DNA from: a virus
Lineage: Duplodnaviria; Heunggongvirae; Uroviricota; Caudoviricetes
DNA: 8,772 nucleotides
Reading direction: 5' to 3' (one strand)
Virus record (IMG/VR): IMGVR_UViG_2548876958_000017
This document shows, one piece after another, positions 2,747 through 7,404 of this stretch. The notes under the pieces are model-generated. The model was not told the origin of the DNA, ran no database searches, and saw nothing but the letters and a program-made list of their open reading frames with translations. The position numbers and the translations under genes were made by a program. Each line of letters starts with the position of its first letter. The first letter of the stretch is position 1.

Positions 2747-3421
2747 ATGAAAACAATCCATGACATCCGGCGGTCTAACGCCAGAAAACTGAGAGATGGT
2801 GTTGGCGGGAATTCTTCCTTTGCCACTATGATTGATCGCGAGCCAACCCAGACCAGCAGGTTTATGGGAGATGGGGCTACTAAAAATATCGGTGACAGCA
2901 TGGCACGACACATCGAAAAATGTTTCGACCTGCCTGTCGGATGGCTCGATCAAGAACACCAGACAACGAACATCACAAAAAAACCTGATGTTTCAATCAC
3001 TAATAAACAAATCACATTAGTCCCTGTCATATCATGGGTACAGGCCGGAGCATGGAAAGAAGTTGGATATTCTGAGGTTGATTTGAGCACAGCAGAAACG
3101 TATCCCTGCCCTGTACCCTGTGGGGAAATGACTTATATCTTGCGGGTGATAGGTGATTCAATGATTGATGAGTACCGCCCGGGAGACATGATTTTTGTCG
3201 ATCCTGAAGTACCTGCCTGCCACGGTGACGACGTTATTGCATTGATGCACGATACAGGCGAAACCACCTTCAAAAGGTTGATAGAAGATGGGACACAGCG
3301 TTATCTTAAAGCGTTAAACCCAAACTGGCCTGAGCCTTACATTAAGATCAACGGTAATTGCTCTATAATTGGTACAGTGATTTTCTCCGGAAAACCAAGA
3401 AGATACAAAATCAAAGCCTAA
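2747..3421 (+). CDS. CI-type prophage repressor with a C-terminal S24 (LexA-like) autopeptidase domain (224 aa)
   Basis: The C-terminal domain closely parallels P22 C2 / lambda CI: ...ISWVQAGAWKE..., catalytic-Ser context VIGDSM, and Lys context TFKRL; compare P22 C2 ISWVSAGQW...QGDSM...TFKKL. The N-terminal ~90 aa are a distinct DNA-binding domain. It is divergent from cro across the operator region. Confidence 0.9.
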   Translation: MKTIHDIRRSNARKLRDGVGGNSSFATMIDREPTQTSRFMGDGATKNIGDSMARHIEKCFDLPVGWLDQEHQTTNITKKPDVSITNKQITLVPVISWVQAGAWKEVGYSEVDLSTAETYPCPVPCGEMTYILRVIGDSMIDEYRPGDMIFVDPEVPACHGDDVIALMHDTGETTFKRLIEDGTQRYLKALNPNWPEPYIKINGNCSIIGTVIFSGKPRRYKIKA

Positions 3422-3433
3422 TCAATGTTTATG

Positions 3434-3456
3434 AACCTGCTTCGGCAGGTTTTTTT
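3434..3456 (+). terminator. Rho-independent terminator after the repressor gene
   Basis: Perfect 7-bp stem AACCTGC / GCAGGTT with TTCG loop, followed by a T run (ttttttt), starting 13 nt after the cI stop. Confidence 0.8.
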
Positions 3457-3460
3457 ATAC

Positions 3461-3493
3461 TTGACAATGTACCTTTGAGATACATAATGTACC
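3461..3493 (+). promoter_or_regulatory. pL-type early-left promoter with OL operator
   Basis: -35 TTGACA (3461..3466), 16-nt spacer, -10 CATAAT (3483..3488). Operator-like palindrome ATGTACCTTTGAGATACAT (3467..3485) lies between -35 and -10, and a second ATGTACC half-site is at 3487..3493. Same half-site as in OR. Confidence 0.65.
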
Positions 3494-3592
3494 CAACCGA
3501 AACAACGAACAGGCAGGACGCCCACGAAGTAGCCGCCGGTGGCGTATGAATGACCGGATGATTCGTTAAATACTATGTGTAAGAGAGCGCAA

Positions 3593-3796
3593 ATGAACCG
3601 TTATTTCACATGCTCGTTTTGTGGCGCAAACGAGCTGCAGGCAAAAAAAATCATCGCCAAAGGCGGAAAAGATGAAATTGCTATCTGCTCTGAGTGCGTA
3701 GTCTTGTGTGTCGGGGCATTAATCAATATCAGCACAACTATTCAGTTCACACCAAATGAGAATGCGCCTTTAGATGCGAGGAAATCTGGAGGTTAA
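3593..3796 (+). CDS. Small free-standing ClpX-type C4 zinc-finger (ZBD-like) protein (67 aa)
   Basis: Start ATG at 3593 is preceded by GAGAG; the upstream ATG at 3575 has no SD. YFTCSFCGANELQAKKIIAKGGKDEIAICSECVVLCVGALI aligns with the E. coli ClpX N-terminal zinc-binding domain [37 protein letters not shown] (CSFCG ... IC.ECV.LC, four Cys). Confidence 0.7.
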   Translation: MNRYFTCSFCGANELQAKKIIAKGGKDEIAICSECVVLCVGALINISTTIQFTPNENAPLDARKSGG

Positions 3797-3885
3797 AGAA
3801 CAAAATGAAAGTCCAGATTTTAAACAATAACTGTGAAGTCGTTTGGGCGTAAAACATGACCGCGCGTAGACCAAGGGAGGAAAAA

Positions 3886-4062
3886 GTGGGAATAGTTAGA
3901 AATCAAGCAGATATATTGAAAATCAGCTCTGAATTGCTTGGAGTTTTGAAAAGTGAGCTCACCGCACATGGCATCGAGCCCACTGACGAAAATTTAAGTT
4001 GGGTTTTGTCGATTATTCAACAATCACTCAAGCCCAGCCTCAGCAAACTTTTTATCGAGTAG
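3886..4062 (+). CDS. Hypothetical small protein (58 aa from GTG; 68 aa if ATG 3856 is used)
   Basis: Strong SD AGGGAGG at 3874..3880, 5 nt before GTG 3886; the ATG at 3856 lacks an SD. The predicted protein is helical-looking with no recognisable motif. Its 3' end overlaps the convergent minus-strand ORF by 39 nt. Confidence 0.45.
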   Translation: MGIVRNQADILKISSELLGVLKSELTAHGIEPTDENLSWVLSIIQQSLKPSLSKLFIE

Positions 4063-4215
4063 TGCTTCGAACTTATCGTAAAGCTTGCTTATGTCGTCTA
4101 TCGGGTTTTCTGACGTACTGTAATTTTTATCTGATGTCATGGCAGCAGTCTGATATGCAGTGTGAGTCTTAACCGATAGTTGGAATAAATAAAGAATTTT
4201 TTCTTCTTTGGTCAT
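4024..4215 (-). CDS. Hypothetical small protein (63 aa), oriented against the pL operon
   Basis: ATG at 4215 with AAGGAAA about 7 nt upstream on the minus strand. A weak candidate promoter lies in 4216..4300 (minus-strand TTCACC-16-TATCTT). The predicted sequence MTKEEKILYLFQLSVKTHTAYQTAAMTSDKNYSTSENPIDDISKLYDKFEALLDKKFAEAGLE has no recognised family. Confidence 0.5.
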   Translation of the reverse strand: MTKEEKILYLFQLSVKTHTAYQTAAMTSDKNYSTSENPIDDISKLYDKFEALLDKKFAEAGLE

Positions 4216-4259: not shown

Positions 4260-4729
4260 AGCCTGAAGTGGTGAAAAGACAGGCACATAACAGCTAAGTA
4301 TTTTCAACCAGAGAGAATCCTTAGCGTTGTGGTGAATGCGGCTCAGCGCACGCGGGTTAAGGTTGAGGCTGACAGTCGACCTTCTGTGGATACCCACCCG
4401 CCTGGTGTGCAACCTTCGCCAGGCACCGGGAGGCACCCGGCACCACAACTTTATGCTGTGTGTAGTCTTGGCGGTACCAGCTTGTACCCTTGCTTCCGGC
4501 TGGTACCGTCCTTTTTACAAAACAGAGAAGAGCATCACCGGACGACGGGCTCATAACCCAATCCATCCGGGCGGCTGCCACCGCAGGTGTTCTTCTCTGT
4601 TTTGTGGAGAAACTAACCGCCCCTACGGGGGCATTTATGGAAATGTAATTGACTCAATAATCGCCGGACGGTGAGGGCCTCCTTTTACCCGAATTCAGCG
4701 CGGTGCAGCGCATATACGTGGAGAACAAA
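4260..4729. other. GC-rich, ORF-poor, hairpin-dense non-coding island (candidate structured RNA or DNA site)
   Basis: Only overlapping ORFs rich in Arg/Gly/Pro and rare codons (AGG, CGG, GGG). 41 of 60 bases at 4381..4440 are G or C, against 22 of 60 at 4081..4140. Perfect 15-bp inverted repeat ACAAAACAGAGAAGA (4517..4531) / TCTTCTCTGTTTTGT (4591..4605); perfect 10-bp inverted repeat CGGTACCAGC (4472..4481) / GCTGGTACCG (4499..4508); further hairpins at 4400..4424, 4426..4440 and 4619..4632. Confidence 0.5.
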
Positions 4730-5266
4730 ATGTCATTTATTAAAACTTTTTCCGGGAAGCATTTTTATTATGACAGGATAAATAAAGACGACATCGTTAT
4801 TAACGATATCGCGGTTTCCCTTTCAAATATCTGTCGCTTTGCAGGACATCTTTCACACTTCTACAGTGTCGCCCAACATGCGGTGCTTTGCAGCCAGCTA
4901 GTGCCACAGGAATTTGCTTTTGAAGCTTTAATGCATGATGCAACAGAAGCATATTGCCAGGACATCCCCGCACCACTGAAACGACTTCTTCCTGACTATA
5001 AACGGATGGAAGAAAAAATAGACGCCGTAATCCGTGAGAAATACGGGTTACCTCCTGTTATGAGCACGCCAGTGAAATATGCCGATCTCATTATGCTGGC
5101 AACCGAACGCCGCGATCTCGGGCTTGATGATGGCTCTTTCTGGCCTGTACTGGAAGGTATCCCGGCAACAGAGATGTTCAAAGTGATTCCACAGGCACCG
5201 AGCCATGCCTACGGGATGTTTATGGAACGTTTTAACGAGTTATCGGAGTTACGCAAATGCGCATGA
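4730..5266 (+). CDS. HD-domain phosphohydrolase, YfbR/YfdR-like putative 5'-deoxynucleotidase (178 aa)
   Basis: SD GGAGA 5 nt before ATG 4730. HD-superfamily metal-ligand pattern: H in ...FAGHLSHFYSVAQHAVL..., HD in ...ALMHDATEAYCQDIP..., downstream D in ...YADLIML.... Size and motif order match the small prophage HD hydrolases such as CPS-53 YfdR as I recall them. Confidence 0.8.
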   Translation: MSFIKTFSGKHFYYDRINKDDIVINDIAVSLSNICRFAGHLSHFYSVAQHAVLCSQLVPQEFAFEALMHDATEAYCQDIPAPLKRLLPDYKRMEEKIDAVIREKYGLPPVMSTPVKYADLIMLATERRDLGLDDGSFWPVLEGIPATEMFKVIPQAPSHAYGMFMERFNELSELRKCA

Positions 5267-5924: not shown

Positions 5925-6274
5925 TGGAGCCATACAGCCTCACACTCGATGAGGCCTGTCATTTTCTCAAGATATCCAGACCGACTGCCATTAACTGGAT
6001 ACGCACAGGGCGTCTTCAGGCAACACGCAAAGATCCCACTAAGAATAAATCTCCTTACCTCACAACACGACAAGCCTGCATTGCGGCTCTTCAGTCTCCG
6101 CTGCATACTGTCCAGGTGAGCGCGGGTGATGGCATAACAGAGGAAAGAAAATGTCACTCTTCCGCAGAGGTGAAATATGGTACGCCAGTTTCACATTGCC
6201 GAACGGTAAAAGATTTAAACAGTCTCTTGGAACAAAGGACAAAAGGCAGGCGACAGAACTCCATGACAAGCTAA
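5924..6274 (+). CDS. xis: Excisionase (Xis), P22-type, 116 aa; its 3' end overlaps int by 124 nt
   Basis: ATG 5924 is translationally coupled to the upstream gene, with GAGGTGA as SD. The N-terminal sequence [30 protein letters not shown] is a classic excisionase/AlpA-type HTH. It sits immediately upstream of int. The 116-aa length matches my recollection of P22 Xis. Confidence 0.75.
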
Positions 6275-7328: not shown

Positions 7329-7404
7329 TGGTGCCGATAATAGGAGTCGAACCTACGACCTTCGCATTACGAATGCGCTGCTCTACCAACTGAGCTATAT
7401 CGGC
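7329..7404 (-). tRNA. thrW: tRNA-Thr (anticodon CGU), with encoded CCA
   Basis: The reverse complement reads GCCGATATAGCTCAGTTGGTAGAGCAGCGCATTCGTAATGCGAAGGTCGTAGGTTCGACTCCTATTATCGGCACCA. It has canonical D-loop (AGCTCAGTTGGTAGAGC), anticodon loop (CATTCGTAATG) and T-loop (GGTTCGACTCC), and a 7-bp acceptor stem (GCCGATA / TATCGGC). Confidence 0.97.

Follow-up and report, generated by a model that had tools for sequence, protein, structure and literature searches.

A free-standing ClpX-type zinc-binding domain encoded at the head of the pL operon of an N-less lambdoid prophage

The prophage early region and its pL operon

The window (the whole 8,772-nucleotide stretch analysed, from IMG/VR record IMGVR_UViG_2548876958_000017) is the early/immunity-to-attachment end of a lambdoid prophage located at tRNA-Thr(CGU) (7329–7404) and adjoining proA. 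From left to right, the genes are ordered PerC-like, HTH_36 replication, CP76/CII-like YmfL, cro and the Peptidase_S24 repressor (2747–3421). They are followed on the plus strand by the leftward early operon, which ends with yfdR-like, DUF551, xis and P22-type int genes. The immunity region is 97.7% identical to that of Shigella phage SfV and is of the e14 ymfK/ymfT/ymfL type. The gene of interest encodes a stand-alone ClpX-type zinc-binding domain (ZBD) and is accompanied by the following features:

2747–3421, plus strand: cI-like repressor of the LexA/Peptidase_S24 family, SfV/e14 ymfK type (profile match and comparison with SfV)
3433–3459, plus strand: intrinsic terminator 3' of the repressor gene, with an 8-bp stem (3433–3452) and then a T run (also annotated in SfV)
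3461–3488, plus strand: pL-type sigma-70 promoter, with -35 TTGACA (3461), a 16-nt spacer and -10 CATAAT (3488), matching 11 of 12 consensus positions
3468–3504, no strand assigned: two operator sites (palindrome match to oR)
3504–3567, plus strand: conserved structured leader RNA of the pL transcript, approximately 64 nt, ending 26 nt before the ZBD start (conservation and covariation)
3593–3796, plus strand: ZBD gene, encoding a 67-aa stand-alone ClpX-type zinc-binding domain (profile match, PDB matches, dN/dS and AF2 model)
3643–3650, plus strand: A8 homopolymer within the ZBD gene, codons A17-K18-K19-I20 (site of truncating A7 alleles)
3805–3852, plus strand: 15-codon remnant of SfV orf33, MKVQILNNNCEVVWA* (comparison with SfV)

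The pL operator carries the 17-bp palindrome of the oR sites between cI and cro (2663–2679 and 2713–2729). One copy, TGTACCTTTGAGATACA (3468–3484), lies inside the promoter spacer and has a single mismatch to TGTACC-N5-GGTACA, while a second, weaker operator-like site (3488–3504) has two mismatches and lies over the -10/+1 region. In all, the TGTACC-N5-GGTACA palindrome is common to three sites at oR (2663–2729) and two at oL (3468–3504). Transcription from pL would start at approximately position 3495. The terminator at 3433–3459 should keep the lysogenic transcript from running into the ZBD gene. The gene, being the first ORF downstream of the repressor-controlled promoter, is expected to remain off in the lysogen and to be expressed immediately upon cleavage of the LexA-like repressor.

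In the K-12 cryptic prophage e14, a promoter-operator sequence identical to pL is found upstream of ymfJ. This gene is SOS-induced late, together with the pR-side gene ymfM (PMC11002266), as expected for control by a cI-like repressor. Given that the promoter-operator sequences are identical, the present prophage and e14 should be homoimmune.

A reading of this DNA made from sequence alone (the sequence-only reading) had proposed the ZBD gene as the first of a repressor-controlled leftward early operon, and the arrangement extends well beyond this prophage. The gene is carried at 80 IMG/VR loci; upstream sequence is available for 79 of these, and in 78 the ZBD start codon lies 23–36 nt behind the same leader. 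Where an upstream same-strand ORF is detected at these loci, it is a repressor, of at least seven types overall. The same leader-then-ZBD layout occurs in E. coli MLI105, K-15KW01, Nissle 1917 and SZQ1, in Salmonella phages 118970_sal3 and F1055, and in Enterobacter.

Fold and docking surface of the ZBD protein

The ORF at 3593–3796 (plus strand) encodes the 67-aa protein MNRYFTCSFCGANELQAKKIIAKGGKDEIAICSECVVLCVGALINISTTIQFTPNENAPLDARKSGG, and its start at 3593 is also the one called by PGAP. A longer form (73 aa) starting at 3575 is unlikely, since the Met-Asn start and the SD-like motif (GAGAG/GGAG, 6–9 nt 5' of it) are kept in all clades, while sequence farther upstream diverges. The core of the protein spans approximately residues 5–45, and residues 53–67 form a tail that is predicted by AF2 to be disordered. 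The predicted zinc ligands C7 (3611), C10 (3620), C32 (3686) and C35 (3695) are invariant among 23 family members and form a CxxC...CxxC arrangement, in which the spacer between the Cys pairs is 21 residues, compared with 18 in ClpX.

A free-standing ClpX-type C4 zinc ribbon had been proposed from the sequence, with a profile search and structure prediction put forward as checks, and both agree with that assignment. The protein matches Pfam zf-C4_ClpX (PF06689) with 39 bits against a gathering score of 27 (E 7.4e-10); the match spans residues 12–46 of the 73-aa form, equivalent to 5–40 of the 67-aa protein. At a Pfam threshold of E<=0.1 no other family rises above its cut-off, the only other match being Elf1 (14 bits, cut-off 29.8). 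The possibility of an Ogr/Delta-like zinc finger, which the sequence-only reading had held open, is rejected on the same search, which gave no Pfam match to Ogr/Delta. Comparison by phmmer with all PDB sequences returned ClpX entries only, the best being the isolated E. coli ZBD (2ds5, E 3.4e-4; 1ovx), to which the phage segment aligns as YFTCSFCGANELQAKKIIAKGGKDEIAICSECVVLC.

The AF2 model of the protein alone, calculated from a 23-sequence alignment, has a pLDDT of 75 overall and of 80–94 over the first four 10-residue blocks. An earlier model from eight sequences (pLDDT 64) gave an identical Foldseek ranking. The top seven PDB entries identified by Foldseek are all ClpX, comprising six ZBD crystal chains (2ds5/2ds6/2ds7/2ds8) and one full-length integrative model (9a5x), after which the probability falls to 0.15. 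The model superimposes on the crystal chains with an rmsd of 1.3–1.5 Å over 41–45 residues and target-normalised TM scores of 0.81–0.85. The product is accordingly modelled as a zinc ribbon with the ClpX N-domain fold and a short disordered tail. The AAA+ module with its ClpP-docking IGF loop is absent from the 67-aa protein, as judged by its length and by two NCBIfam ClpX equivalog models that match the N-terminus only (residues 5–47), with 25 and 21 bits against cut-offs of 359 and 371. This upholds the earlier claim that the gene encodes no AAA+ module.

Across 45 ZBD codons, comparisons among clades (67-aa E. coli, 121-aa E. coli and two from Salmonella) give dN/dS values of 0.06–0.26, with dS at or near saturation in most of them; ratios in this range place the ORF under purifying selection. 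The ZBD ORF is a genuine gene under selection, and an accessory one, in this N-less lambdoid prophage of the SfV/e14 type. Alleles with A7 in place of the A8 tract cut the protein to 35 aa and are found at 5 of the 80 IMG/VR loci, and several complete E. coli genomes, including that of an ST131 strain, contain 203-nt matches to the gene without a CDS. This A7/A8 variation could reflect either slippage-prone on/off switching or homopolymer sequencing error.

Lambda O, SspB, RssB and trigger factor all dock on the ZBD of ClpX (PMC7804408), and the isolated domain dimerises and binds RssB by itself (PMC7226468). Residues F16, A29 and Y34 of ClpX matter for SspB binding (PMC3064785), while F16 and I46 make up a hydrophobic side pocket associated with trigger factor and overlapping the lambda O site (PMC7804408). 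The phage protein is approximately 36% identical to the E. coli ClpX ZBD and shares with it the CxxC...CxxC treble clef and the motifs CSFCG and ICxECVxLC. In contrast to ClpX, it has neither linker nor AAA+ module, carries a short disordered tail of its own, is encoded by a prophage early operon, and has a three-residue insertion (KGGKDE) before the third Cys, in the loop ahead of A30. Two of the four reported docking residues are kept: F16 (phage F9) is invariant in the phage family and A29 (A22) is conserved in at least 90% of members. The other two are not. At the position of Y34 (A30), at least 90% of members have Ala and none has Tyr, and the position of I46 (A42) is variable. N44 is replaced by Val.

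From these comparisons, the phage proteins retain the fold and part of the groove, specificity is probably altered, and the pocket for SspB, lambda O and trigger factor does not appear to be conserved as such in the phage family. With a docking surface that is only partly conserved, simple titration of SspB or lambda-O-type ligands is not assured, nor does an identity of only ~36% to the host ClpX ZBD imply heterodimerisation with ClpX. Because the groove is remodelled (Y34 to Ala, I46 variable, three-residue insertion), the preferred ligand is probably not SspB itself but some other phage or host protein.

Structured leader, cargo slot and relatives

The leader that precedes the ZBD gene is near-invariant among prophages whose promoters and first genes differ. 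It comprises a helix P1, in which 3505–3509 pairs with 3562–3566, and a helix P2, in which 3536–3540 pairs with 3553–3557 around a conserved 12-nt loop. Among 79 distinct variants, 97.8% of cells in P1 and P2 are paired, compared with 68.0 +/- 1.1 in shuffles, none of 500 of which reaches the observed value, and slid controls give 19–47% pairing. Compensatory double changes occur in 9 of the 10 pairs, with a covariation score of 0.747 (shuffles, 0.190). The stability of a single sequence is unremarkable (z = -0.06), and the structure is drawn from covariation only. The unpaired segments are highly conserved, namely CAGGCAGGACGCCCACGAAGUAGCCG and the P2 loop GGCRUAYGAAnn.

No Rfam family matched the leader, comparison with the HK022 put region and lambda nut revealed no similarity, and no second copy is present within the window. 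A mini-ORF within the leader (MNDRMIR) was dismissed, as it is not conserved in Salmonella variants. The leader is found in at least 120 IMG/VR contigs and in 1388 of 5426 complete E. coli genomes (26%), in which it is unannotated; it is also present in K-12 e14, at approximately 6100–6180 (minus strand) of the e14-bearing sequence. It may be an N-independent cis-regulatory element of the pL transcript in N-less lambdoid phages. Such an element could explain how the early-left transcript is controlled in these phages, K-12 e14 included.

According to one report (PMC3851460), phages SfV, SfII and SfIV have no N, cII or cIII. The earlier description of the ZBD gene as sitting where N normally does is correct as to map position, which it shares with lambda N and P22 gp24 as the first gene downstream of pL/oL. 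However, phages of the SfV/SfII/SfIV type have no N, and the slot in question is one of hypervariable cargo. Map position is also all that the ZBD gene has in common with lambda N and P22 gp24: it is optional, in a group reported to be N-less (PMC3851460), and an N-type antiterminator was rejected given that the protein has no arginine-rich motif, the leader has no boxA/boxB nut site, and SfV does not have the gene.

The viable phage SfV carries an unrelated 98-aa gene, orf33, in place of the ZBD gene, which is therefore accessory rather than part of the core regulation. Directly after the ZBD stop codon, the first codons of orf33 are kept, which places a mosaic junction there. The remnant is followed (3856–4215) by a 68-aa plus-strand ORF (phrog_15476) and a convergent 63-aa minus-strand ORF (phrog_2605). 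The latter is annotated by PGAP, and neither family has an assigned function. The segment between the leader and an STnc100-like region can be regarded as a mosaic cargo hot-spot.

Only 131 of the 5426 complete E. coli genomes (2.4%) contain the ZBD gene, as do four phage records. Among sampled viral contigs that carry the leader, the ORF following it belongs to more than 30 unrelated small-ORF clusters, with the ZBD accounting for ~10%; these cluster counts are approximate, first ORFs having been called heuristically by an SD-like motif and a length of at least 35 aa. The leader slot of other genomes holds small plus-strand ORFs or opposite-strand genes. As the leader is far commoner than the ZBD and precedes so many unrelated first ORFs, the ZBD gene is optional cargo in a hypervariable slot heading the pL operon.

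Downstream, the segment 4296–4519 (plus strand) matches the Rfam gammaproteobacterial sRNA STnc100 with 43.4 bits, just below the gathering score of 47 (E 5.9e-7). It is GC-rich, is kept in SfV and many prophages, and is labelled 'frameshifted hypothetical protein' by PGAP. It is probably a non-coding RNA within the pL operon, at a position comparable to that of DicF in Qin.

Close relatives of the ZBD protein share residues 1–45 and differ in their tails, giving total lengths of 57–147 aa; some tails contain the short motif (I/L)x(I/V)xF..AP. More widely, an exhaustive profile search yielded 599 clusters at 50% identity, most of them of small proteins that contain between one and four ZBDs, and only two of the best 150 clusters contain ClpX-sized members. 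A word-indexed search gave at least 4926 clusters at 90% identity. These other stand-alone or tandem zf-C4_ClpX proteins share the domain and likewise have no ATPase module, but the phage subtype differs from them in its 'AIC(S/D)ECV..LCV' signature, its single domain and its location adjoining an immunity switch. Sampled members with the ClpX-like sequence 'YICDEC' are chromosomal, and many are tandem repeats.

Relatives of the same subtype recur beside genetic switches of other phages. A 65-aa ZBD-only gene lies directly downstream of, and co-directional with, a c-like repressor in a Mu-like prophage that has MuA/MuB on the other strand (Oleidesulfovibrio contig, 4425–5198). Two high-GC prophages have a relative directly after cro, in one of them opposite an S24 repressor, and a further relative lies within a cro-side early operon. 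Distant phage relatives score 48–49 bits against zf-C4_ClpX, and F9, G11, I31 and all four Cys are invariant from Enterobacteria to distant taxa. The strongest indirect hint that the protein takes part in the early decision or in takeover is this repeated placement beside the switch in phages of unrelated architecture.

In RefSeq the product (WP_001083098.1) goes by 'ClpX C4-type zinc finger protein', and PHROGs places it in phrog_5259, the function of which is listed as unknown. A full-text literature search found no study of a free-standing or phage-encoded ZBD, and one passing mention of a discarded contig that carried the domain, in line with the sequence-only reading, which knew of no characterised phage protein of this kind. 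The domain is familiar and the product already named, and what is new is the stand-alone phage form.

Possible roles of the ZBD protein

ClpXP controls lambda O, MuA, the Mu repressor, sigma-S, LexA fragments, antitoxins and restriction alleviation, and Mu biology, including transposition and repressor turnover, depends on ClpX. The ZBD supplied in trans reportedly blocks degradation of lambda O and MuA in vitro (attributed to Wojtyra et al. in 2003). Small phage-encoded protease inhibitors include lambda CIII, a pL-encoded inhibitor of FtsH, T4 PinA and T7 gp4.5, which act on Lon, and lambda RexB through its effect on ClpXP; they act on a host AAA+ protease and protect phage regulators.

Tentatively, the function that we consider most likely for the ZBD protein is CIII-like: it would interfere in trans with ClpXP traffic that depends on the ClpX N-domain as lytic growth begins. 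The protein would dimerise, as does the isolated ClpX ZBD, and intervene in the docking network of the ClpX N-domain. It might sequester a client or adaptor that normally binds the host ZBD, or it might associate with the N-domains of ClpX itself. The outcome would be a transient change in the set of proteins degraded by ClpXP during the switch to lytic growth. Lambda CIII is the closest functional analogy, being small, phage-encoded, produced from pL immediately on derepression and directed at a host AAA+ protease. Neither CIII nor the other inhibitors are related to the ZBD in sequence or fold, however, and CIII acts on FtsH as a competitive substrate or amphipathic helix.

A ClpXP role is plausible in view of the domain identity, the fold, purifying selection on a core with variable tails, and retention of F16 and A29, and equally in view of the pL architecture, the first-gene position at 78 of 79 loci and the recurrence beside genetic switches. 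Against it stand the dispensability of the gene for this phage type (SfV is without it, and it occurs in 2.4% of genomes compared with 26% for the leader), the replacement of Y34, the variability of I46, the loop insertion, the varied replication modules, the frameshifted alleles, and the fact that treble-clef zinc fingers are generic interaction modules. Protection of an O-like initiator was suggested in the sequence-only reading; the replication initiator at this locus is an HTH_36 protein and not lambda O. Since carriers of the ZBD gene have several different replication modules, nothing ties it specifically to an O-like initiator.

Alternatively, the ZBD fold may be reused as a generic zinc-ribbon module with a target unrelated to ClpXP, such as a switch protein, RNA polymerase or a nucleic acid (for instance the adjacent leader RNA), in which case the resemblance to ClpX would reflect ancestry. 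This is a serious possibility, though we consider it somewhat unlikely. The failure to keep Y34 and I46, the lengthened loop and the hundreds of small ZBD proteins in non-phage chromosomal contexts are all in keeping with it, as is the constant location of the gene 23–36 nt behind a conserved structured RNA. The leader, however, is present in approximately 10 times more genomes and precedes many unrelated ORFs, indicating that it needs no ZBD protein. By its sequence the protein is near-neutral and has no arginine-rich or obviously basic surface; no Pfam family of DNA-binding zinc fingers, Ogr/Delta included, matches it, and both F16 and A29 are retained.

A hijacking adaptor, in which the ZBD joins or docks on ClpX and the variable tail recruits a host or competitor-phage protein (a defence factor or resident repressor) for ClpXP, is improbable. 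The combination of a constant ZBD with highly variable C-terminal extensions (10–75 aa, some with (I/L)x(I/V)xF..AP) would suit such a role, and a fast-swapping cargo slot is typical of conflict genes. The version encoded here, however, has only a ~15-residue disordered tail, and to join ClpX a free ZBD would have to enter its trimer-of-dimers. PADLOC profiles gave no match for the ZBD protein, two neighbouring ORFs or two homologs. Least credible of all, the selection results already speaking against it, is a passenger ORF that is neutral or in decay and has no function, for which the A7 frameshift alleles (5 of 80 loci and several complete genomes) and the absence of the gene from most related prophages could be cited, against dN/dS values of 0.06–0.26 across clades with saturated synonymous divergence, the invariance of all four Cys, F9, G11 and I31, and a conserved position.

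Should interference with ClpXP be the function, a docking-domain-only copy of ClpX would represent a new way for viruses to edit host proteolysis, and a natural tool with which to separate N-domain-dependent from pore-dependent ClpX functions. It is interesting to speculate, although we regard this wider proposition as rather doubtful, that N-less lambdoid, Mu-like and high-GC lambdoid temperate phages encode beside their switch a trans-acting mimic of the ClpX N-domain that inhibits or re-targets ClpXP during the lysis-lysogeny decision. Such a 'CIII for ClpXP' would have no known precedent as a decoy of the adaptor-docking domain of an AAA+ protease. The family is small, easily expressed and widespread, occurring in E. 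coli (including Nissle 1917), epidemic monophasic Salmonella and Enterobacter.

Small ZBD proteins in non-phage chromosomal contexts are found, for example, adjoining genes for ECF sigma factors or response regulators. In one metagenome contig (3308–4261), a Clp_N protein (196 aa) adjoins a ZBD protein (86 aa) downstream of an ECF sigma factor gene, both being free-standing, which suggests that chromosomal 'orphan' Clp N-domains may cooperate.
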